IMG/VR virus record: IMGVR_UViG_2724679538_000007
Location: 1-38,703 of that record
DNA from: a virus
Lineage: Duplodnaviria; Heunggongvirae; Uroviricota; Caudoviricetes
Length of the DNA stretch: 38,703 nucleotides
Direction: 5' to 3' (one strand)
Position numbers and translations under genes: made by a program. Shown here one piece after another: positions 1 through 37,775 of this stretch (position 1 is its first letter; each line of letters opens with the position of its first letter). The notes beneath the pieces were generated by a model that saw only the letters and a program-made list of their open reading frames with translations, did not search any database and was not told the DNA's origin.

Positions 1-1071
1 TTATTTGATTTCAATTTTGTCCCACTCCCTGCCTCTGTCATCACGATACTGTGATGCCATGGTGTCCGACTTATGCCCGAGAAGATGTTGAGCAAATTTA
101 TCGCTTATCTGCTTCTCATAGAGTCTTGCAGACAAACTGCGCAACTCGTGAAAGGTAGGCGGATCCCCTTCGAAGGAAAGACCTGATGCTTTTCGTGCGC
201 GCATAAAATACCTTGATACTGTGCCGGATGAAAGCGGTTCACGACGAGTAGATGCAATTATGGTTTCTCCGCCAAGAATCTCTTTGCATTTATCAAGTGT
301 TTCCTTCATTGATATCCCGAGGGCATCAACATGCAATGCTGTTGGGATGGCAATTTTTACGCCTGTTTTGCTTTGCTCGACATAAAGATATCCATCTACG
401 ATATCAGACCACTTCATTTCGCATAAATCACCAACTCGCTGCCCGGTAACAACAGCCAGTTCCATTGCAAGTCTGAGCCAACATGGTGATGATTCTGCTG
501 CTTGATAAATTTTCAGGTATTCGTCAGCCGTAAGTCTTGATCTCCTTACCTCTGATTTTGCTGCGCGAGTGGCAGCGACCGGGTTTGTTGTTATATGGCC
601 TTCAGCTATTGCCTCTCGGAATGCATCGCTCAGTGTTGATCTGATTAACTTGGCTGACGCCGCCTTGCCCTCGTCTATGTATCCATTGAGCATTGCCGCA
701 ATTTCTTTTGTGGTGATGTTTTCAAGTGGAGCATCAGGCAGACCCCTCCTTATTGCTTTAATTTTGCTCATGTAATTTATGAGTGTCTTCTGCTTGATTC
801 CTCTGCTGGCGAGGATTTTTTCGTAGCGATCAAGCCATGAATGTAACGTAACAGAATTATCACTGTTGATTCTTGCTGTCAGAGGCTTGTGTTTGTGTCC
901 TGAAAATAACTCAATGTTGGCCTGTATAGCTTCAGTGATTGCTATCCTCCTGTCTCGGCCTAATCCAAACTCTTTACCCGTCCTTGGGTCCCTGTAGCAG
1001 TAATATCCATTGTTTCTTATATAAAGGTTAGGGGGTAAATCCCGGCGCTCATGACTTCGCCTTCTTCCCAT
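1..1071 (-). CDS. int: Tyrosine integrase, lambda Int type (356 aa)
   Basis: Translation matches phage lambda Int over its full length as I recall it (MGRRRSHERRDLPPNLYIRNNGYYCYRDPRTGKEFGLG ... HELRSLSARLYEKQ ... GHKSDTMASQYRDD). Confidence 0.97.
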   Translation of the reverse strand: MGRRRSHERRDLPPNLYIRNNGYYCYRDPRTGKEFGLGRDRRIAITEAIQANIELFSGHKHKPLTARINSDNSVTLHSWLDRYEKILASRGIKQKTLINYMSKIKAIRRGLPDAPLENITTKEIAAMLNGYIDEGKAASAKLIRSTLSDAFREAIAEGHITTNPVAATRAAKSEVRRSRLTADEYLKIYQAAESSPCWLRLAMELAVVTGQRVGDLCEMKWSDIVDGYLYVEQSKTGVKIAIPTALHVDALGISMKETLDKCKEILGGETIIASTRREPLSSGTVSRYFMRARKASGLSFEGDPPTFHELRSLSARLYEKQISDKFAQHLLGHKSDTMASQYRDDRGREWDKIEIK

Positions 1072-7071: not shown

Positions 7072-7788
7072 TCAAACCAGTCTGAGTTTTGTCTCAATTG
7101 CAACGCCTATAATCTTGCAGTTTCCATTGATTGGCACGAGAGGCCATGCAGGATTAAGTCCCTTGAGGTATTTATTTCCGCCGTCGATTATCAGCTTCTT
7201 GAATGTTGCTTCGTTAGAGTCAGAAAGTTTTGCTATGACCAAGCTGCCGTTGATCGCCTCCCTTCCGGTATCGAAAAGAACGAATGTTCCCTCTGGAATG
7301 CTTAACCCAACCGGTGCCGTCATTGAATCACCTTCCACTTTAAGCCAGAACGCATTACCTTGAATATGCGCGTCAGACTCAAGCCAAACATCTATGTCTT
7401 TAATGGTGTATGGTTCGCATGCTTCACACCACGAGCCAGCCTGGATACTGCTTAACACCGGATACCTCTTTCCTGCTCTGTATTCCCCTGCATACCTTAC
7501 GTTGGCATCGCTCTTAAGGCTTTCTGCCTGTTCTGCAACCTTGGCAGCAATTGACTGGCTAAAATCAGCAATTGAGACTTGCAACAATCGTGCAAAACCA
7601 GATGCAACCTCAACGTTTAGCGCATTTCTGCCATTAAGATAATGCCCTACCGCTCCTTGGGTGATACCCAGTTCATCAGCGATTGAGTATTGGGTTATTC
7701 CCAATTCTTTCTTTTTTGACTCATACAAAGCCTTAAGCCGCTTAGCGTCTTCCAGCTGTTCTGTCGTCAGTGATTTTTTATTTTCCAT
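7072..7788 (-). CDS. cI: CI-type prophage repressor (HTH N-domain plus LexA/S24-like autocleavage C-domain, 238 aa)
   Basis: LTTEQLEDAKRLKALYESKKKELGITQ and FWLKVEGDSMTAP ... FKKLI ... LNP parallel lambda CI ([47 protein letters not shown]). Confidence 0.93.
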   Translation of the reverse strand: MENKKSLTTEQLEDAKRLKALYESKKKELGITQYSIADELGITQGAVGHYLNGRNALNVEVASGFARLLQVSIADFSQSIAAKVAEQAESLKSDANVRYAGEYRAGKRYPVLSSIQAGSWCEACEPYTIKDIDVWLESDAHIQGNAFWLKVEGDSMTAPVGLSIPEGTFVLFDTGREAINGSLVIAKLSDSNEATFKKLIIDGGNKYLKGLNPAWPLVPINGNCKIIGVAIETKLRLV

Positions 7789-13726: not shown

Positions 13727-13911
13727 ACGCCACAATTCAAACGATACCAGAGCTTCTTATCCAGACACGAGGCAATCAGACCGAAGTGGCAAGGATGCTT
13801 TCCTGCGCAAGAGGAACAGTGCTCAAGTACAACCGAGACAGCAAAGGCGAGCGTCACGTAATAGTTAACGGCGTCCTGATGGTCAAACAGGGCAAAAGGG
13901 GAAGGCCATGA
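13723..13911 (+). CDS. ninH: NinH-like small DNA-binding protein (62 aa)
   Basis: GNQTEVARMLSCARGTVLKYNRDSKGERHVIVNGVLMV parallels lambda NinH (GNQTEVARRLKCSRGTVRKY...). Confidence 0.7.
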   Translation: MNATIQTIPELLIQTRGNQTEVARMLSCARGTVLKYNRDSKGERHVIVNGVLMVKQGKRGRP

Positions 13912-14531
13912 GACTCGAAAGCGTAGCTAAATTTCATTCGCCAAAAAGCCCGATGATGAGCGACTCACCACGGGCCACGGCTTCTGACTCTCTTTCCGGT
14001 ACTGATGTGATGGCTGCTATGGGGATGGCGCAATCACAAGCCGGATTCGGAATGGCTGCATTCTGTGGTAAGCACGAACTCAGCCAGAATGACAAACAAA
14101 AGGCTATCAACTATCTGATGCAATTTGCACACAAGGTATCGGGGAAATACCGTGGCGTTGCAAAGCTTGAAGGAAATACTAAGGCAAAGGTACTGCAAGT
14201 GCTCGCAACATTCGCTTATGCGGATTATTGCCGTAGTGCCGCGACGCCGGGCGCAAGATGCAGAGATTGCCACGGTACAGGCCGTGCGGTTGATATAGCC
14301 AAAACAGAGCAGTGGGGGAGAGTTGTTGAGAAAGAGTGCGGAAGATGCAAAGGTGTCGGCTATTCAAGAATGCCAGCAAGCGCCGCATATCGCGCTGTAA
14401 CGATGCTAATCCCAAACCTTACTCAACCCACCTGGTCACGCACTGTTAAGCCGCTGTATGACGCTCTGGTGGTGCAATGCCACAAAGAAGAGTCAATCGC
14501 AGACAACATTTTGAATGCGGTCACACGTTAG
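13908..14531 (+). CDS. Q: Late-gene antiterminator Q, lambda type (207 aa)
   Basis: MRLESVAKFHSPKSPMMSDSPRATASDSLSGTDVMAAMGMAQSQAGFGMAAFCGKHELSQNDKQKAINYLMQF... matches lambda Q essentially throughout as I recall it. Confidence 0.95.
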   Translation: MRLESVAKFHSPKSPMMSDSPRATASDSLSGTDVMAAMGMAQSQAGFGMAAFCGKHELSQNDKQKAINYLMQFAHKVSGKYRGVAKLEGNTKAKVLQVLATFAYADYCRSAATPGARCRDCHGTGRAVDIAKTEQWGRVVEKECGRCKGVGYSRMPASAAYRAVTMLIPNLTQPTWSRTVKPLYDALVVQCHKEESIADNILNAVTR

Positions 14532-14966: not shown

Positions 14967-15170
14967 ATGTACCGTATGGACAAAATCAGAGAATGGTTCA
15001 GTTACAGCTTCGGAGGACTGACTGCGATGGGTGGCATTCTCTCCCTGAATGACTGGGCTGTCATCATTGGTATTCTTTGTACTGTCGGCACATTTGGCAT
15101 CAACTGGTACTACAAGCGCAAAGAGCGCGAGGACAGATTGAATGGCAATGTCACCGGCACTACGAAATAG
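14967..15170 (+). CDS. Holin, small two-TMD class (pinholin-like, 67 aa) with dual-start motif
   Basis: MYRMDK... has Met1 and Met4 separated by a basic residue (holin/antiholin dual start); Gly/Ala-rich TMD1, second TMD, charged C-terminus KRKEREDR; RBS overlaps a hairpin (cccctcaatgaagggg); first gene after tR'. Confidence 0.75.
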
Positions 15171-15645
15171 CGTAATAGCGGCGATAAGTGGCGGGGCTAT
15201 TGCTATAGCATCTGTGTTAATCACTGGACCAAGTGGTAACGATGGTCTGGAAGGTGTGAGACATAATCCTTACAAAGACATAGTTGGTGTATGGACTGTA
15301 TGTTACGGGCATACAGGAAAAGACATCATTCCCGGTAAAACGTATACCGAAGCAGAATGCAAAGCCCTCCTGAATAAAGACCTTGCCACGGTAGCCAGAC
15401 AAATTAACCCGTACATCAAAGTCGATATACCGGAAACAACGCGCGGCGCTCTTTACTCGTTCGTCTACAACGTGGGTGCTGGCAATTTCAGAACATCGAC
15501 GCTTCTTCGCAAAATAAACCAGGGCGATATCAAAGGCGCATGTGACCAGCTACGTCGTTGGACATATGCTGGCGGTAAGCAATGGAAAGGGCTGATGACT
15601 CGCCGTGAGATTGAGCGTGAAGTCTGTTTGTGGGGGCAACAATGA
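15142..15645 (+). CDS. SAR endolysin (T4-lysozyme-like muramidase with N-terminal signal-anchor-release domain, 167 aa)
   Basis: N-terminal Gly/Ala-rich weakly hydrophobic segment [20 protein letters not shown] followed by a lysozyme catalytic region ([22 protein letters not shown]) as in phage 21/P1 SAR endolysins. Confidence 0.9.
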
Positions 15646-16079
15646 ACAGAGTAACCGCGATTATCTCCGCTCTGGTTATCTGCATCATCGTCTGCCTGTC
15701 ATGGGCTGTTAATCATTACCGTGATAACGCCATTACCTACAAAGAGCAGCGTGATAAAGCCACATCCATCATCGCTGATATGCATAAGCGTCAACGTGAT
15801 GTAGCAGAACTTGATGCCAGATATACAAAGGAGCTTGCTGATGCTAACGCGACTATCGAAAGTCTCCGTGCTGATGTTTCTGCTGGTCGTAAGCGCCTGC
15901 AAGTCGCCGCCACCTGTGCAAAGTCAACGACCGGAGCCAGCAGCATGGGCGATGGAGAAGGCCCAAGACTTACAGCAGATGCTGAACTCAATTATTACCG
16001 TCTCCGAAGTGGAATCGACAGGATAACCGCGCAGGTTAACTACCTGCAGGAATACATCAGGACGCAATGCCTGAAATGA
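15642..16079 (+). CDS. Rz: i-spanin Rz (145 aa)
   Basis: [34 protein letters not shown] matches the lambda Rz N-terminus; coiled-coil remainder. Confidence 0.9.
15841..16026 (+). CDS. Rz1: o-spanin Rz1 (lipoprotein, about 61 aa) embedded in the +1 frame of Rz
   Basis: [20 protein letters not shown] lipobox followed by a proline-rich segment; AAGGAG RBS 7 nt upstream; embedded architecture as in lambda. Confidence 0.75.
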
Positions 16080-28436: not shown

Positions 28437-29909
28437 ATGGCTACTTGGCAACAAGGAATCAACTCAGGCGGTTTTCTTGCTGGTATCGGTGGGCAAAACT
28501 CAAATGCGCCAAAGGCAAGTGATGTAAGTGAGGCGTTGGCCTATATTCGCCAGAACAACGAAATGGAGCGTTCAGGGCGCAATAACATCGGCCTTCAGGC
28601 ATTGCAGGGACTTGGTAGTGTCGCTCAAACATATCAAGCCGCAAAGCAACAGGAAGCGGATGCTGCATTCCAAAAAGAATATGCGGCAGCCATCCAGTCC
28701 GGTGATCGACAGCAGGTTCGAGATCTGATGACCAAATATCCTGGTCAATTAGAGAAGATTCAGTCTGGTATGAAGTGGGCAGACGAAGACCAGCGCAATT
28801 CTATCGGCACCTTAGCGGCAGGCGCACGCCTTGCGGCCTCGTCTCCAGAAGCAATGCAATCATGGCTGCAAAACAACGCCAAGGAACTGGCGCGCGTCGG
28901 TGTTGACCCTAACAACGTTGCTCAGATGTATCAGCAGAATCCTTCAGGATTTGGTGAGTTTGTTGATCACCTTGGAATGGCTGCTCTTGGTCCGATTGAC
29001 TACTTCAATGTTCAGGACAAGATGGCAGGTCGTGAGATTGACCGAGGCAGGCTGGCAGAGACAATCCGCAGCAATCAGGCTGGCGAGGCACTTCAGGCGA
29101 GAGGGCAGGATATTAGCAGAGCAAATGCGTTAACGTCAGCATATGCACCAACAGCCGCAATGCAGAATTACAATCAGTACGCGCAAATGTTAAAGGCGGA
29201 TCCAGATGGTGCAGCGGCATTTGCGGCAGCGGCGGGAATTAATCCCAATGCTAAGAAATTACTTAAGGTTGAAACCAATCCTGATGGCTCGGTAACTAAG
29301 TATTACACCGATGGCAGCGAGGAAGCCGGAAAACTAAACCAACCTATATCTGGTGATGGCATTAAACCAATTAGTTTGCCACAAGCGCAAAGCATCATAG
29401 ATAAGGCTAATGAGGGTTCCAAGAAGGCGGCAGGATTTGCTTTGCGATTAAAAGATTCAATGGACTCAATGAATCAGCTTAGTAAAAGCATTGACCCTAA
29501 GCGAGTTGCATTAATAAATCGCTCTCTTGGTGATGGGACTATTGCAAATTTAAGCCTATCACCAGCGGAGCAGCAATATATGGTAAATGCGAGAGACGCC
29601 TTGTATGCAATTTTGCGCCCAGAAACAGGTGCAGCAATTACTCTGCCAGAGATGCAGGAGTATTCCAAAATGTACCTGCCTCAGCCTGGTGATTCCAAGG
29701 CTGCTACTGAAACAAAAATGCGAAAAATGCAGGGCCAATATAACTCATTACGTGGTCAGTCTGGTCGCGTTTATGATGCTTTGGTGGTTTCAAGTGCTGC
29801 AAATAGTCAACAACAGAGCAATAGCCAACAACCGACAAATACCCAACAGCAGCAGAGTCAATCCGGATCATATACCTCAAAATCAGGCATTCAATTTACG
29901 GTGGAATGA
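28437..29909 (+). CDS. Ejection protein, P22 gp20-like (490 aa)
   Basis: Synteny and size; AAGGTGG RBS. Confidence 0.75.
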
Positions 29910-31753
29910 TGAAAGTAACTGCAAACGGTAAGACATTTACCTTCCCTGATGGTACGAGCACGGAAGATATTGGCACCGCCATTGATGAGTATTTTGCTGG
30001 TCAGGCTGTTCAGCAACAAACAGTTAATCAGGTCAATAATGAACCAGCACGTGAAGAACCATCATTGATGCAACAAGCTGGCGATTGGCTCACAGGTGGT
30101 CAAAGTGCAGGGCAAATTGCAGAGCAGGCTGGTCGTGGTCTGGTAAACATACCATTTGACGTATTGCAGGGTGGCGCAAGTCTGATTAATGCAATCAGCC
30201 AGGGGCTTGGTGGCCCCAAGGTTTTGGACGATGTCTATCGTCCAGTAGATCGACCAACAGACCCTTATGCGCAAGCTGGAGAAACAATTGGCGGGTATTT
30301 AGTTCCAGGAGTTGGAACGGCAGGAAGCATGGCTATTGGATCACTGGCAGAGGCCGCAAATCAGAAAGGCGATTTCGCACAAAATGCAGCTAAAAATGCC
30401 GGAGTTAACCTTGCCGCTCAGGGTGTTCTTTCCGCAGCAGCAAAGGGAATAGGGCGTGGAATAACGGCTATAAAAGGTGATATTGCGCCAGAAGTGGCGA
30501 AGAAAATTGCCACATCAGAATCGATGGGCGTGACACCAATGACATCTGATGTTATCCCGCCGAAAAATGCTTTCACTCGCGGACTTACTCAGGATGCTGA
30601 GGGGGCTTTGCTCGGGACAGGCTCAAAGCGAGCGGAGCAATATGCAACGCGTAGTAAGCTGGTAAGCAATTATTTTGACCGTTTTGGTGAGTACAACCCT
30701 GATGATGTGGTGAAATCTCTTACCACCACGTTAAGGGGGCGGAAGGATGCCGCTGGCGCTGTTATCAATGACGTCACCAATAAAATGGGTAATGCCGCAG
30801 TTGATACCACAAATACCATGAATGCTCTGAATACAGCGATCGCAAGACAGGAACGGCTTGGGACGTCTGCCAATCAAAGCCTGCTTACATCCTTGCGTAA
30901 CCTACGTGAAGAATTAGCAAACCCTGCAACTGATTTGGATGTTACGTTTGATCTCTTGCGTCAGCACAGAACAGCATTTAGATCTAATGTTCAGGGAGAT
31001 GCTATGGTCTTCCCCAACCAGGCAAAAGCAGCTACCAATATGGTAGAGAATGCAATGTCAAAAGACCTTCGTAACGCAGTTGCTAAAAACCTCGGTGCAT
31101 CAGACGCAGCAAAATACCTTAAAGCAAATTCCGATTATGCAAACGTTTATAATAAGGTGCTTAATAAAAACATTGCCAACAAGCTCAACAAGGCAAGCAG
31201 TGAAGCCAGTCCTGAACTTATAAATACCGTTGTATTAAGCAGAAAACCATCTGACGTGAAACGAATCTGGAGCGCACTGGATGATAAGGGGAAAGATGCT
31301 ATGCGTGCAGCTTACGTCAGCAAAATAGCGGAAAAGGCCGGGGACTCTCCAGCCAAGTTCATCACTGAAGTTAATAAGCTGAAATCTCAGTCAGGCGGTG
31401 AAATTTACAACACTATTTTTTCTGGAAAGCACATGAAAGAGCTTGATGCTCTTCATGAAGTTCTACAGCAAACAGCAAGGTCAGACACCGCAAATGTAGT
31501 AACTCAGACGGGGCAATCGCAAGCCAACAGGATAAGGACGATTGGCGCAACTGCGACCCTTGGCGTATCAATGGGGCTTGAGGCTGGTTTTGGTGCAATG
31601 ATGCGCTTGTATGAGTCCAAAGCAGCAAGGAATGCTCTCTTACGTCTGGCAAACACTAAAACTGGAACGCCAGCTTATGAAAGAGCGCTAAATAATGCTG
31701 CAAATGCGATACGCCCTATACTTTCAAGCCAAATTACAGCAGAACAGCAATAA
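29906..31753 (+). CDS. Ejection protein, P22 gp16-like (615 aa)
   Basis: Synteny and size (P22 gp16 is about 609 aa); start overlaps the gp20 stop. Confidence 0.75.
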
Positions 31754-31767
31754 AAGATAAGATATAA

Positions 31768-32253
31768 CTACCTGATATTACTGCTACTGTTGCATGTTAC
31801 CGTGTTTCCAAATCCTGAATTGCAGTTTGTATATGTGTCAACGCGTGTTGGGTAAGGTTGAGTTATAACAGGCTGGCGCGCTTTTTGCTCGATCGCTTGC
31901 ATTGTGTTTACAGCCTGATAATTCAATAAAGCCTGCTGGAATGCTTGGCTTTGTGCTATTTGTTGGGCTTGTTCTTGGCTTTGTAATTGAACATAAAGAT
32001 TCTGAAGCTCAAGTCTTGCCTGTGCGTCACTTATCTTGCCTTCATCGACACCTTGCCCGAGCATCTTTGCAGCAAGGACATACAGCTTAGGTGTTGGTGC
32101 TGATGCCATGCGTGAGTCGTTCTTCACACTGGCATCAAGGCAATTAGCCATATCGCTAAGCTTTTGATAGCGTTGTTCGCAACTTGCTTGATAGTCACTT
32201 ACTTTTGCGCATCCAACCAGAAGAAGCGGGATAATTAACAGTGATTTTTTCAT
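31768..32253 (-). CDS. Lipoprotein (161 aa), antisense to the late operon; candidate superinfection-exclusion factor
   Basis: Signal peptide plus lipobox MKKSLLIIPLLLVGC; AAGGAG RBS; occupies the P22 sieA/immI position between gene 16 and the tailspike. Confidence 0.7.
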   Translation of the reverse strand: MKKSLLIIPLLLVGCAKVSDYQASCEQRYQKLSDMANCLDASVKNDSRMASAPTPKLYVLAAKMLGQGVDEGKISDAQARLELQNLYVQLQSQEQAQQIAQSQAFQQALLNYQAVNTMQAIEQKARQPVITQPYPTRVDTYTNCNSGFGNTVTCNSSSNIR

Positions 32254-32287
32254 ATAATTAACTCTCCTTAGTTTTTAGCAGGATACC

Positions 32288-32653
32288 ATGAAAAAAGTTA
32301 ACATTGGAAACGTACCAAAGATGCTCGTTCCGCTCTTTGAGAGCGGTACAATTGTGTTTTGTAGAGACTTTCCAGAATGGCAACGCCTGCATCAAAAACT
32401 TGGTGTGGACGTGCATGACTCGGACGCCAACGGAGCGTCTCATACAATGAGTAGCGAGAATGGTGTTTTGCATGTGATAGGCGTGTTCAATGGCAAACTA
32501 TCTACCATTGCCCATGAGTGCGCTCACATGGCATTCGATATCTGCTCAAGGGTAGGTGTTGATGTTGAACCAGGAAGAGCCAACGAGACTTACTGCTACT
32601 TAATGAGCAGGCTTGTTGAGTTCTGCGAGCGACATATCAAAAAGCCGGAGTGA
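32288..32653 (+). CDS. Small HExxH-motif protein (121 aa), possible zinc metallopeptidase-like regulator
   Basis: Motif IAHECAHMAFD (HExxH); ATG with AGGA RBS; diverges from the lipoprotein gene with only 34 bp between start codons. Confidence 0.5.
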   Translation: MKKVNIGNVPKMLVPLFESGTIVFCRDFPEWQRLHQKLGVDVHDSDANGASHTMSSENGVLHVIGVFNGKLSTIAHECAHMAFDICSRVGVDVEPGRANETYCYLMSRLVEFCERHIKKPE

Positions 32654-32666
32654 CCCGGCTTGATTA

Positions 32667-32846
32667 TTACTTTTTGCTGTCTGGAGTTCGCTTATCCAAT
32701 ACCCAGCCATGACCTGGCTTTGTTGTTGGTGGAAGCCTTTCGTTGTCCTTGACGGTTGCAAAATTGTCTTTCTTACCGCCGCGTGGGCCAACTTCTTGGT
32801 ATATTCCGCCGTTTTTTCCAGTGTTTTCACCTGGTTTTTTCGCCAT
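32667..32846 (-). CDS. YjzC-like small protein (59 aa)
   Basis: MAKKPGENTGKNGGIYQEVGPRGG resembles the YjzC-family motif (PGE..NG.Y.E.G..G) from memory; GAGGT RBS; track ORF is longer (32667..32861). Confidence 0.5.
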   Translation of the reverse strand: MAKKPGENTGKNGGIYQEVGPRGGKKDNFATVKDNERLPPTTKPGHGWVLDKRTPDSKK

Positions 32847-33007
32847 GATATACCTCAACATACACCCGTTATTGGGCGATTAAATATTGATCTCATTTTA
32901 TAAGTAGTCAATATGGTCTTGGTAATGTCAAAAATTAACCAATCGTCATCTGGGGTATCCGTAAAAACTCTTCAGTACATAACTACTGACAGATAACCAA
33001 CGCAAAG

Positions 33008-33032
33008 ACCCAGCTTCGGCTGGGTTTTTTTA
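33008..33032 (+). terminator. Hairpin plus T-tract upstream of the tailspike gene
   Basis: ACCCAGC-ttcg-GCTGGGT followed by TTTTTTTAT. Confidence 0.5.
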
Positions 33033-33089
33033 TGCCCAAAATTCACCGTAGCCATGCTGCGGCGATTCCTTGTATCTGGAGCAAATTAA

Positions 33090-34991
33090 ATGACAGATTC
33101 AATAAATGCCAATGTTGTAGTGAGTATGCCTTCGCAACTCTTCACTATGGCTCGTTCTTTTAAAGCCGTAGCCAATGGCAAAATTTATATCGGGAAAATT
33201 GACACTGATCCGGTAAATCCTGAAAACCGGATTCAGGTTTATGTAGAGAACGAAGACGGCTCTCACGTTCCTGTTTCTCAACCAATCATCATTAACGCTG
33301 CTGGTTATCCGGTATATAACGGACAGATTGCTAAATTCGTAACTGTGCAAGGCCATTCCATGGCTGTTTATGATGCGTATGGTGCACAGCAATTCTATTT
33401 TCCTAATGTGCTGAAGTATGACCCTGACCAGTTCAAACCTGAACTACAAGGTGCCAATGGAGCAAGCTTAATTGGTACTAATCATCGCGGCACCTTAAAG
33501 GCTGACTTAGATCGCATTGACAATAGAACGTCGGGACAGTCCATCGCAGATTTAAAGTCTAATACTGGTGATATTGTTATCGACTCCTCTGTTACGGACG
33601 CAATCACCCCAATTTCAGGCAGCGAGATATCTGGGGCGAGTAACGGGGAACATGTCACCGCTAAGGGTACTGTCGGGATTACTATAAATGATAGCAGGGT
33701 TAAGGTTGATAACTTGCTAATGCGCGGCGACGGCACTGTAGACTACACGGACACCTCACCGACATATAATGCCATTATCTATGGCTCGGACGTTGTTGTG
33801 TCCCGTTCATACGCTAAAGACACGACAATGGGGTACGACTTGGCCGCCGGTGCTTCCAACGTTAAGCTAATTGGTAATACAAGTGAAAATATGACGTCGC
33901 ACCCCGCCGTTGGTACACCACCTGTTTCAGCCGGTGGCTATGGTGTGCTTCTGGGAACTAACGAGGACGTATTAATCCTGGGCCATTCTGCTAAGGGCAC
34001 AAACCCTGCTGACCGCCACGCAGTATACCTATCAAATACGAACAACACTGACCAGAACAAAGATGTTCGGGTAATCGGCTTACGTGCGGATTACAGCGCA
34101 GGTCCATCCGCGGGGGATAAGCCGGAGCGGTCATCACCTATGATATTCGCCCGCGGCAACAACGGCGTCATTATCAGTTCTTCCCAACTCCGTGGCGGCG
34201 GAGCCGGTATAAATTTCACAGATGAGCGCGTAGGATACAGTTCAATAACCTTGAGTGATTTGCAATTACTGGATATTCGTAAGAATACCGCGGATGAGTC
34301 ATGGGGTATCGCACTCAACCACGCGTCTGCTAACGCTTCCAATGTCAACACCCAGAATATTATTAACGGCGTTAATATAGTAATGGCGCCCGGGAGCACA
34401 TCTGCCGACAGGTCGAATCAGTACCCTATACACCTTAATTCACAGCGGTATGTAAATATTGATAATGCCATCATAGCATCGTCGGGGTTGGCGTACGGAA
34501 TACGCCTGATAGCTACAAGTTACTGTAATATCAGTAATGTAGTAGGGTTTACTAACGATGGGACATCTGCCGCGGCGGCCGTGGCGTTCTTCCAGTTTCA
34601 GAACGGAAGCAGTAATATTAAATTAAGCAATATAAACGTCCAATCAAGAAATACAATGTTCGCAGGGCTGGATAATGTAACCGACTTGCAAGTGGATTGG
34701 GTGCGTAAAGTTCGCATTAACGTTGTATCTGGAGCGGCTACAGTATCAGGGGATATATGGGAACTAGTTAGCGGCGTAACCGTCACTGGGGCGAGTATAG
34801 CTGTTCAACTTAAGGGCCATGTAACACAAACCGCTGCTGATGGCGCTATCGTAAGGCCGGCTAGTGCTAATCAATTTATTGTTGCTGGCACTGACTCTAA
34901 AAGGATTACAATTTCTGTATATAACGTTAATGGCACTGGTGTTGTGCCAAACACTGGTACTTATTCGTTCGATATTGTGCTATATAAATAG
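33090..34991 (+). CDS. Tailspike protein (P22 gp9-like N-terminal head-binding domain, divergent receptor-binding domain; 633 aa)
   Basis: N-terminal about 120 aa parallel P22 tailspike (ANVVVS ... [22 protein letters not shown] ... [12 protein letters not shown] ... NVLKYDPDQ); the rest is unrelated by eye and Gly/Asn/Ser-rich, consistent with a beta-helix. Confidence 0.88.
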
Positions 34992-35050: not shown

Positions 35051-36499
35051 CTATCGACATTTGTTGAAGTCAAATATCATTGTGTCATTATGAATAAGTG
35101 TGGTGTAGATACTATTACTTCTGTATGGTTTTTTGCACGATGATGCCAATGCAGATGGTAAGTTTATCTTAGAATCATAATCTACTTTTATTCCCATGCT
35201 GTTAAAAATAAATGCCCCAAACATCCAGTCTGATCTGATATATGATGGAGTAATCATGCCAATGATTCCGATTTTTTCATTAGCGTTTTGTACTGGTTGA
35301 GGAAATGAAGTTAACCCATTAAATCTTATTTTAGTTATATTTTGGCTTGATGTTATGTCCTTAGCCATAGAATAAAATAAAAATTCCTCTTTGCTCTTCT
35401 GTGCTTGTAAGGAATTCCCATACATGTAACTAACAATAAAGCACGAGAAAATTAAAGGGATAGGTGTGAAAAACGTCCATCTATTGGCGCTTGAAGATAT
35501 AATATAAACTGAAAAAAACATGAGACCAGAAAATCCTACTAATACCCTGGGATATACAACAGGTTCATCTAGAATAAAAAGAACGCCAATAACAGATAAT
35601 AATACGCCAAATATGCATATTAATGTAGCTATTGTCGTGTTAATTGTTTTTCTTTGAAATGCATTTGTGAATGACATTGCTATTGCTATTGATAATGTTA
35701 TAGCAAATATACCCCCCAGAAATCCCGAAAGAGCCTTTAATATCATACTTGTGTAAATTTTGTAATTTTCTGATACATTAAATGCAAGACCTTTTACATT
35801 TAATGCTAATTGAGCATGGTTTGTGCTATATGCGCCAGAAACATAAATGCTAGCAATTAGTAGTTTATAAATAATAAGTGCGGCAGTTAATGCCAGTATA
35901 TATACTGAAATATTCTTAAGAAGTGTTGTTATATTATCTGTTGATTTTAAAATAATACAATTCAAACAAGTGAGAGCAATAAATATGTTTACTGATGATT
36001 GATACAGGCTTAAAGTAAAAACCAACAGAATGATCGATGTCGCGAAATTTATAAAACTTTTGTTTTTTAAAAGAAGTGCGGCGGACACAACAGATAATGA
36101 CACAGAGAGTGACATTGTAAATACGTCAAATTTGTAAGACAAATTTTGAAGATAAAAAGGTGATACAATCAAAGATAGTGAAATTAATACTACCCTAAAT
36201 TTTCCTTCGAGTTTGGTTATGAAACAATAATAATAACAAGAGGTTATCATTGTTAACATTGATAGCAAAAGAGGCATTGGTGATATGTTGATAACCTTAC
36301 CACCAAATGACATACCTTTAATTATCCATTCTGCAAGCGGTCTACCATTGTCTGCCCATCTTGCATATCCAGCAATATTTCTTGATATGTCGTCAATGTA
36401 GAAAACATTGCCAATAATCAATGGTAATGAGTATAGAATAGCAAGTGTAATGGCATAGGTATATCCATTACGTTTTAAATACATTATAAATGAGTTCAT
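35051..36499 (-). CDS. Serotype-specific O-antigen glucosyltransferase, GtrC-type polytopic membrane protein (482 aa)
   Basis: Third gene of a gtrA-gtrB-X operon; many predicted TM helices; strongly AT-rich relative to the rest of the prophage; GtrC-type proteins are typically this divergent. Confidence 0.7.
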
Positions 36500-37416
36500 T
36501 GTGTTTTACCTTTTATTATATAACGAGGTCTCATCTTTGTTTCTGTGTAAATTCTTCCAATGTATTCACCTAGCACACCAATACCTATCAATTGGACGCC
36601 GCCAAGGAACAGAATAGACACGAGCAATGAAGGATAACCACGAACAGGGTTTCCAAACACCAGTGTGTCAAGAATCATCAACGCACCGTAAATAAATGCC
36701 ATACTGGCAACAAAAAGCCCGATATAAGTCCACATGCGTAGTGGGAATGTTGAGAAACTTGTTATTCCCTCAAGGGCTAAATTCCACAACTTCCATCCGT
36801 TAAATTTCGTGCTCCCTGCTACACGTTCGGCGCGAACATATTCTACAACATCAGTCTTTCCGCCAACCCAACTCAGTATACCCTTCATGAATAGGTTGCG
36901 TTCTTGCATGAGCTTAATATTTTCTACAACTTCACGGCTCATTAACCGGAAATCACCAACATTTTCCTCAATCTTTGGATTACTTATTTTGTTGTGTAGC
37001 TTATAGAACCACTCAGCAGTTTTGCGCTTCAGACGACCATCAGTAGATCGATCTGATCGTTTGGCAAGAACCATATCAGCGCCTGCCTGCCACTTTTCTA
37101 TAAGATGAGGAATAACCTCAATCGGGTCTTGCAGGTCAACATCAATTGGAATCACGGCATCGCCAGTTGCATGGTCTAACCCTGCAAACAATGCTGGTTC
37201 TTTACCAAAGTTGCGTGTAAATGACAGCGGAACAACTAGCGGATCAGAAACAGCCAGAGCGTTAATGATTGACTCCGTAGCGTCTTTGCTTCCGTCATTT
37301 ATGAAAACAATTTCTACTTCATATGACTTCAACTCTTCGAATTCACGTACCGTTTTATAGAAAATTGGTATCGCTTCTTCTTCATTGAAGACAGGAACGA
37401 CCAGAGATATCTTCAT
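36496..37416 (-). CDS. gtrB: Bactoprenol glucosyltransferase GtrB (GT2 family, 306 aa)
   Basis: [19 protein letters not shown] ... INDGSKD ... two C-terminal TM helices; typical GtrB organisation. Confidence 0.92.
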
Positions 37417-37775
37417 TTCGCATCCCTAAAGACAATGAACTTTGAATAGACGAAACCGCACACCAGGCTGATGGCGGAGAAAGTGATAAGGGTGACCATC
37501 GGGGGAAGTGCGCATCTATCAGCAGCCCACCCGACGACAACACTCAAGGTTCCCATGAATCCCACGTATAACAAGTAACGCATCGTTGTAGTCGATGCTT
37601 TGAATGTGAATCTTGCATTCGCGAAGAAGCTAAAGCTCACAGCTACTATGAAACCTGCGAAGTTTGCCATAGCTTGATTTGTATGCGCTGCATAGATACA
37701 TACACCAAAAACCACCCAGTGTATAAGTGTGTTCAGCACACCAATTGAGGTGTACTTTGCAAATAGCTTTAACAT
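37413..37775 (-). CDS. gtrA: GtrA-type flippase (small four-TM protein, 120 aa)
   Basis: Size, hydrophobicity and position as the first gene of the gtr operon, overlapping the gtrB start. Confidence 0.88.

Follow-up and report, generated by a model that had tools for sequence, protein, structure and literature searches.

SieA of phage P22 is a polytopic inner-membrane protein with three to four transmembrane helices and a cytoplasmic FxRYPxEAxxFNK motif, and its function, superinfection exclusion, has been demonstrated. The sieA gene lies 23 nucleotides (nt) after the ejection gene 16, on the minus strand and with its own annotated promoter, in the region before the tailspike gene 9 that has been called the 'ant moron' (Villafane et al. 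2008, PMC2629481). Only about one in three of the P22-like phages sequenced has sieA, and a single chromosomal copy of the gene with only 85 bp of upstream DNA gives full exclusion (Leavitt et al. 2024, PMC10883804). The present analysis concerns a gene for a predicted lipoprotein of 161 amino acids (aa) that occupies the same slot in IMG/VR record IMGVR_UViG_2724679538_000007, whose entire 38,703 nt (hereafter the window) read as a complete P22-like prophage. What is new here is that a lipoprotein unrelated to SieA is wired to the sieA promoter and ribosome-binding site. To our knowledge, the contents of this slot in P22-like phages without sieA were previously unexamined.

Lipoproteins that exclude phages are also known from other settings. 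Llp of phage T5 and Cor of phages phi80, N15 and HK022 are outer-membrane lipoproteins that exclude phages by inactivating FhuA. The mEpimmI prophage lipoproteins Lpp021 and Lpp010 exclude phages that use OmpA or LamB (PMC11893012). Lpp021, Lpp010 and Ltp of the Streptococcus phage TP-J34, which acts through the tape measure protein, are encoded, like the window gene, within or beside structural gene clusters of prophages; their exclusion has been shown experimentally, their carriers are siphoviruses, and Ltp is surface-exposed in a Gram-positive host.

The window gene resembles sieA in slot, strand and size class (161 versus 164 aa) and in its near-identical promoter and Shine-Dalgarno (SD) DNA. 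It sits behind P_sieA in the interval from gene 16 to gene 9 and runs antisense to the late operon. Gene 16, the operon's last gene ahead of the slot, converges on it, and the two stop codons are 14 nt apart. Both products are envelope proteins of P22-like prophages (by prediction in the case of the lipoprotein), and they are mutually exclusive in the slot. A preliminary description of the window, made from the letters alone, had noticed an antisense lipoprotein gene with its own ribosome-binding site between gene 16 and the tailspike, and had assigned it to the P22 sieA/immI position. The flanking annotation confirms the antisense placement, the SD sequence 8-10 nt ahead of the ATG supplies the ribosome-binding site, and the sieA position stands; the immI genes it named for P22 have no counterpart here, as tblastn gave no matches to mnt, arc or ant in the window.

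The 31-nt P_sieA annotated in the P22 record (TTGGTACGTTTCCAATGTTAACTTTTTTCAT) recurs in the window as an exact copy. Through the SD, 77 of 79 nt of the 85-bp sieA fragment are identical to P22 in a pairwise alignment, as are 470 of 479 nt in the hkcC block further upstream. Because of this near-identity to the 85-bp fragment, the window gene is wired to regulatory DNA that is sufficient for a prophage exclusion function. The P_sieA sequence overlaps the first ~10 codons of the hkcC homolog on the other strand, so that 34 nt of intergenic DNA are common to this divergent neighbour and the lipoprotein gene. An extended -10-like element, TGgTATCCT, lies ~10 nt ahead of the SD; it is a candidate promoter element that is kept as TGaTATCCT in Escherichia coli O26:H11 though the upstream DNA otherwise differs there.

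The upstream DNA of the window gene, P22 sieA, HK620 hkcB and an unannotated 109-aa open reading frame (ORF) of ST160 is near-identical as far as a common TAAGGAG core and unrelated beyond it. All four genes join the block at the same nucleotide, at a mosaic junction directly 3' of the SD (window 32262..32340, minus strand, aligned with P22, L004; HK620, L002; and ST160, L014). The four products show no pairwise sequence similarity, and all begin with a membrane-targeting hydrophobic segment; homology of the lipoprotein to SieA and HkcB was tried and none was found. HK620 HkcB (epsilon34 gp14) and the ST160 product are, like the lipoprotein, N-terminally membrane-anchored and largely helical, but they have an uncleaved anchor where the lipoprotein has a lipobox. 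The promoter/SD block thus appears to act as a fixed 'socket' for unrelated genes.

The assignment of the 161-aa product as a lipoprotein, also made in the preliminary description, is supported by its N-terminus (MKKSLLIIPLLLVGC-AKV...), in which a basic n-region is followed by a hydrophobic core and then by L-V-G-C, a lipobox of the form [LVI][ASTVI][GAS]C within ~25 residues of the start. If cleaved before Cys15 (codon 32211..32209), the mature form has 146 aa. Cys15 is invariant and Gly14 at least 90% conserved in an alignment of 36 homologs, and 82 of the 88 close relatives and 116 of the 133 distant ones have a lipobox. The residue at +2 is Ala in the window protein, A, V or T in close members and mostly A, T, S or V in distant members; Asp, the Lol-avoidance signal, occurs at +2 neither in the window protein nor in any of the relatives checked. 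The +2 rule for lipoprotein sorting is established in Enterobacteriaceae, and on this rule the Ala predicts Lol sorting to the outer membrane.

Several properties indicate that the gene is more than a chance ORF, namely a full-length match to phrog_6067 (E 1.6e-110; residues 1-161 on profile positions 1-161 of 161), 94 homolog clusters (48-99% identity, all homologs with an organism name coming from Enterobacterales), retention of the lipobox, and a low ratio of nonsynonymous to synonymous substitution (dN/dS = 0.04 against the copy in phage Gally, at dS 0.27). The gene is under strong purifying selection; in more distant pairs dS is saturated, with dN of 0.13-0.46.

The structure prediction that the preliminary description had proposed was carried out with AlphaFold2 (model m9b5761b66013, built from 80 sequences, mean predicted local distance difference test score (pLDDT) 86) and gave a helical head, a long helix and a hairpin, for which a fold search returned no neighbour in the PDB or BFVD. 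Helices span residues 18-28, 32-45, 47-51 and 53-70, and a continuous helix spans residues 76-125 and is followed by a linker; pLDDT in the head is 93-98 in this model and 80-88 in a second one. The alignments show residues 16-90 to be strongly conserved and the Gln-rich middle variable. Cys15, Cys25, Cys38 and Cys154 are invariant, and Cys144 is nearly so in the wider alignment. The Gln-rich extension of the long helix is the most length-variable part of the family and is mostly missing in the ~130-aa distant relatives; in the P22-like phage members this helix is ~25 residues longer than in those relatives. The signal peptide region, residues 3-21, is the sole hydrophobic segment, whereas P22 SieA has about three hydrophobic regions (4-32, 78-111 and 109-148); with a cleavable signal only, the lipoprotein is predicted to be anchored in the outer membrane and to reside in the periplasm.

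The C-terminal hairpin, which in the model is bracketed by Cys144 and Cys154, a putative disulfide pair, has a history different from that of the head. Its Cx5-12C motif is found in 76 of 83 close and 91 of 119 distant relatives, and the C-terminal part evolves 2-3 times faster than the N-terminal part (dN 0.53-0.58 versus 0.20-0.23). The hairpin is also swapped as a module between otherwise near-identical proteins: two types, ...TNCNSGFGNTVTCNSSSNIR and ...TTNCTTYGNQTRCQSY, occur on near-identical N-terminal domains (e.g., P0025 versus window residues 127-161), which indicates recombination inside the gene. Fast evolution and module swapping fit the pattern expected of an arms-race surface.

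In all 13 phage and prophage loci compared (the window, phage Gally, E. coli O26, Proteus phage Brookers, Morganella, Yersinia ruckeri, Serratia marcescens, Serratia fonticola, Citrobacter, two Tatumella species, Providencia and one metagenome-assembled genome), the lipoprotein gene abuts the 3' end of gene 16, convergent with it, between gene 16 and the tailspike. A scan of genome contigs yielded only five loci, as the collection holds one genome per species, and these positional statistics therefore rest on 13 loci and not on hundreds. The position is kept down to ~30% identity, the Serratia fonticola copy being ~30% identical to the distant relative P0100 and recovered only with a profile of distant members. 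In Morganella and Yersinia the gene is alone in the interval between gene 16 and the tailspike. Seven loci have an Arc/Mnt-family gene (mnt) upstream on the same strand (gap 70 nt in O26, 17 nt in Brookers); Mnt is a lysogeny-maintenance repressor. No homolog of P22 SieA was found by tblastn in the 12 loci searched.

The accompanying gp16 is of at least five types. The lipoproteins of the window and Gally are 97.5% identical, their gp16 proteins only 34%; compared with the window gp16, the ST160 protein reaches 82% identity and that of the sieA carrier P22 75%. This divergence of identities indicates that the cassette moves independently of the ejection proteins, and such mobility fits an accessory rather than a virion function. 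Neither the lipoprotein nor its C-terminal module was seen to co-vary with gp16 or gp20 type; this speaks against co-adaptation to the ejection proteins of the same phage and is neutral on ejection proteins as targets. Among 186 phage records with a P22-type tailspike N-domain, a tblastn survey of three occupant types found SieA type A in 41, an HkcB-type protein in 8 and the lipoprotein in 5. The lipoprotein is present in 186 of 5426 complete E. coli genomes, always annotated as 'hypothetical protein' (e.g., locus ECO26_RS17405 of E. coli O26:H11 str. 11368), and several of the closest E. coli genomes among the matches listed are O26 or O26:H11.

Some carriers are themselves in decay. What is left of a degraded P22-like prophage in Serratia marcescens (L009, L010 and L011) includes the tailspike, a Bro-N antirepressor-like gene, the lipoprotein gene and a gene 16 with a shortened 5' end (490 aa in L010 and L011). 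This remnant lies next to unrelated genes for PolA and SNF2, and upstream of its lipoprotein gene the motifs TTGTCAAC and TTTGCAAAATTTTGCAAA are repeated and look like operators. A holE-like gene for a DNA polymerase III theta subunit recurs near the tailspike/integrase end in Brookers (L003) and Morganella (L005 and L006). In Pectobacterium peruviense (L025) such a gene stands beside an orphan lipoprotein gene, which suggests the end of a remnant prophage.

Beyond these phages, an exhaustive hidden Markov model search recovered ~250 cluster representatives (clusters at 50% identity), 96 of them with E<1e-10. Most of these wider-family members are ~130-aa lipoproteins with the same head and hairpin and a shorter helix, and the distant relatives share the lipobox, a YQxxCE...CL...KLY helical domain and the TNCxxxGNxxxC hairpin; they have no Pfam match and matched only phrog_6067. 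Distant relatives are found in two small islands with an integrase and a DUF3987 or AAA_25 gene, one adjoins a Panacea-type toxin-antitoxin gene, the Pectobacterium orphan is probably a prophage remnant, and at least one has ordinary chromosomal genes for neighbours (uvrC, UDG, earP). The islands with integrase and DUF3987 (L026 and L028) also encode a second exported protein of 129 aa (L026 5644..6033, plus strand) near the lipoprotein relative, with three CxxxAWRHxxDGGLGxTxGQAxxLC repeats and, in L026, a 69-aa ORF between the genes; that the second 129-aa L026 ORF is a paralog of the lipoprotein was ruled out, as BLASTP gave no alignment. The NCBIfam GspK hit of the window protein (18.9 bits against a cut-off of 130) is an artefact of Gln-rich low complexity. 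The homolog P0023 of Cronobacter dublinensis is named 'general secretion pathway protein GspK' at NCBI, probably a mis-annotation from the Gln-rich helix.

Compared with the described exclusion lipoproteins, the window protein shares several features with Llp and Cor: all are phage-encoded, with a lipobox, an outer-membrane location (predicted here), a disulfide (putative here) and a gene near those for host recognition or entry. However, its mature form is about twice as long as theirs, with a helical head, stalk and hairpin, and, unlike Llp and Cor, it is carried by a podovirus with an O-antigen receptor and no known link to FhuA. A tblastn search of the phage collection with the lipoprotein returned only five P22-like records, and it is hence unrelated in sequence to Lpp021, Lpp010 and Ltp. 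No match at E<=0.1 was found to the Pfam families of lambda Bor/Iss and of TraT. The lipoprotein therefore does not appear to belong to the SieA, Llp/Cor, Bor/TraT or spanin families, and if it does work like SieA, Llp/Cor or Bor/TraT, it would be a functional analogue with what the model suggests is a new fold.

The reading preferred here, to which we assign a probability of roughly 45%, is that the gene is a prophage-expressed accessory ('moron') cassette in the sieA slot of the ant moron and confers superinfection exclusion from the outer-membrane side. The gene, its conservation, its lipoprotein signal, its position and the identity of its promoter with P_sieA can be read from the DNA itself; from position, promoter and predicted localisation we infer an exclusion function, and with it expression in the lysogen, residence in the outer membrane, an exclusion phenotype and a target. 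In such a lysogen the gene would be transcribed leftward from the sieA-type promoter, against a silent late operon, or, in other phages, downstream of the lysogeny-expressed mnt. The product would be exported by Sec, lipidated at Cys15 and, given Ala at +2, sorted by Lol to the inner leaflet of the outer membrane. There the helical head would lie under the membrane while the long helix projected the disulfide-locked hairpin into the periplasm, where it might disturb assembly of the gp7/gp20/gp16 conduit of incoming P22-like phages or, alternatively, an outer-membrane protein that these phages need after binding O-antigen. The proposed action would thus fall on the entry step, as does that of Llp and Cor. 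During lytic growth, antiterminated late transcription running antisense through the gene would dampen its expression.

Exclusion is supported by the slot and strand shared with sieA, whose function is exclusion, and the idea, which the preliminary description had already raised as a possible block of a receptor or of DNA translocation, is strengthened by the shared promoter and SD DNA. The nature of the slot as a cassette site, the constancy of the position in all 13 loci and the mobility of the gene relative to gene 16 also speak for it. It is further supported by the lysogeny-maintenance repressor gene upstream on the same strand in seven loci, by the occurrence of distant relatives as cargo of integrase islands and beside a Panacea-type toxin-antitoxin gene, by the fast-evolving, module-swapped hairpin, and by the precedent of unrelated prophage lipoproteins that exclude phages dependent on OmpA, LamB or FhuA. 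A broader version of the exclusion reading is doubtful. It would make the slot a plug-and-play site for unrelated envelope cassettes and the lipoprotein the founder of a new, widespread class of outer-membrane exclusion factors (~250 clusters), taken up time and again by small integrative islands and temperate phages and blocking the podovirus conduit or an unrecognised outer-membrane co-receptor from the periplasmic face, with the hairpin setting specificity.

Several observations weigh against exclusion. The view that the slot holds exclusion genes draws on one characterised occupant, SieA, and most P22-like phages have no known protein receptor. No BLASTP alignment to SieA was obtained at E<=100 and the FxRYPxEAxxFNK motif is absent, the comparison being with P22 SieA and not with types B or C. 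The preliminary description had seen no obvious similarity to Llp or Cor, and the phrog, PDB and fold comparisons agree: there was no match to the Cor family phrog_1119 and no likeness in fold or sequence to Llp, Cor, Ltp or SieA, and PDB sequence-profile searches yielded nothing beyond coiled-coil noise and a match to the signal peptide of Llp (8a60_B, residues 1-30, E 0.29), the single part of Llp that matches. The window protein has no Pfam family at E<=0.1, no NCBIfam family and, among catalogued anti-phage defence proteins, no PADLOC-DB match at E<=1. A simple consensus promoter scan called no promoter upstream of the gene, TGgTATCCT included, so that the promoter assignment depends on identity with the P_sieA annotated in P22, which is itself only 'putative' in the literature (PMC10883804). 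The relative in an ordinary chromosomal neighbourhood implies that the original role of the family may have had nothing to do with phages. Finally, no published description was found of the lipoprotein, of its accession, of hkcB or of such a lipoprotein in P22-like phages.

Other roles for the gene draw on much of the same evidence. The product could be a lysogenic-conversion lipoprotein of the outer membrane that helps the host in ways unconnected with phages (serum or complement resistance, adhesion, or tolerance of stress or antimicrobials), as do lambda Bor and plasmid TraT. Prophage-type expression signals and a predicted envelope location would suit this role equally, as would the gene's frequency in complete E. 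coli genomes, with O26 and O26:H11 among the closest matches listed, its retention in the degraded Serratia remnant and as the Pectobacterium orphan, and the relative among ordinary chromosomal genes, whose setting suggests a role in the cell. We nevertheless consider it unlikely, because a host-fitness role leaves unexplained why the gene is so strictly tied, in many genera, to the junction of ejection genes and tailspike and to the sieA promoter, because the fast, module-swapped C-terminus better fits an antagonistic interaction, and because no Pfam match to Bor, TraT or another family was found. Less probable still is that the protein is an orphan periplasmic immunity protein whose helical head binds and neutralises a periplasm-acting toxin, such as a type VI effector or the domain of a colicin or bacteriocin, and shields the lysogen in competition with other bacteria.

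A function in lysis or in the virion, either as an o-spanin-like lysis lipoprotein or as a helper of the ejection proteins or tailspike, might be expected of a gene that sits inside the late structural region, adjoining gene 16 and near gene 9, and o-spanins are small outer-membrane lipoproteins with conserved Cys residues. The gene is, however, on the strand opposite to the late operon, and no i-spanin gene adjoins it, as one does in Rz1-like systems; the window's endolysin and Rz spanin are encoded ~16 kb from it, on the opposite strand. A near-identical lipoprotein beside strongly diverged gp16, the variety of gp16 types that accompany it, and its absence from most P22-like phages (5 of the 186 records with a P22-type tailspike N-domain carry it) also speak against a lytic or virion role, which is very improbable.

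Table 1. Features of the window, with one slot occupant of phage ST160 for comparison; coordinates are those of the window unless a locus is named.
Feature	Coordinates	Strand	Basis or remark
Integrase	1..1071	-	
Repressor	7072..7788	-	
Q-like antiterminator	13908..14531		
Endolysin and Rz-like spanin	15142..16079	opposite to lipoprotein gene	~16 kb from lipoprotein gene
Ejection proteins gp7, gp20, gp16	27747..31753		
Gene 16 (ejection/DNA-transfer protein)	29906..31753	+	phrog_770 'DNA transfer protein', E 4e-280
Prolipoprotein coding sequence, 161 aa	31768..32253	-	ORF listing and sequence read; ATG start
C-terminal beta-hairpin, residues 139-159, between Cys144 and Cys154 (TNCxxxGNxxxC)	31777..31839	-	AlphaFold2 strands 139-146 and 152-159
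Gln-rich extension, residues 97-125, of continuous helix 76-125	31879..31965	-	AlphaFold2 model
N-terminal helical domain, residues 18-96, four-helix-bundle-like head with Cys25 and Cys38	31966..32202	-	alignments A1/A2, AlphaFold2
Predicted signal peptide, residues 1-14, and lipobox LVGC, residues 12-15 including Cys15	32209..32253	-	sequence read
Shine-Dalgarno AAGGAGAG	32262..32269	-	DNA alignment A3, pairwise P22 alignment
TGgTATCCT, extended -10-like element (candidate)	32280..32288	-	upstream comparison
Copy of 31-nt P_sieA	32318..32288	-	exact string match
hkcC homolog, 121 aa	32288..32653	+	phrog_1365; HK620 annotation; divergent neighbour of lipoprotein gene
Bidirectional terminator-like hairpin between hkcC and orf59a-like ORF	32642..32661	both	terminator scan
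Degenerate immI region	32667..33089		orf59a/hkcD-like 64-aa ORF and terminators left
t_ant-like terminator	33008..33025		
Tailspike	33090..34991	+	Pfam Head_binding, E 1e-64
gtrCBA	35051..37775	-	
Unannotated ST160 109-aa ORF	L014 2668..2997	-	slot occupant

To the right of the slot, the immI region of the window is reduced as in HK620, to the hkcC homolog, an orf59a-like ORF and terminators (Table 1). The HK620 counterpart of the hairpin that follows hkcC is annotated as the bidirectional terminator tORF59A, and in the window this hairpin appears to isolate the predicted slot promoter from transcription arriving from the right. The hkcC homolog contains an HExxH motif (HECAH) and has a marginal match to a thermolysin active-site region (E 0.09), and the orf59a/hkcD-like ORF has a weak YjzC-like Pfam match below threshold. 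On the other side of the slot, a GC-rich hairpin with a T run after it (GAAGGGCTATTGCCCTTC-TTTT) separates the convergent lipoprotein gene and gene 16 in Proteus (L003 4478..4500) and Morganella (L005 6481..6500); the corresponding 14-nt gap in the window and in O26 has no hairpin.

The locus is informative on the exchange of cassettes among P22-like phages. Should the proposed exclusion prove true, the lipoprotein would offer a second and independent means of studying the passage of the gp7/gp20/gp16 conduit through the envelope, and it would be, as far as we know, the first exclusion factor acting on short-tailed phages from the outer-membrane side. It would also give a function to a broad lipoprotein family without a Pfam or NCBIfam model that occurs in many Enterobacterales, including Shiga-toxigenic E. 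coli O26:H11, and would be relevant to the prediction of host range in phage therapy. Should exclusion prove false, the gene would still encode a conserved lysogenic-conversion lipoprotein of pathogens.

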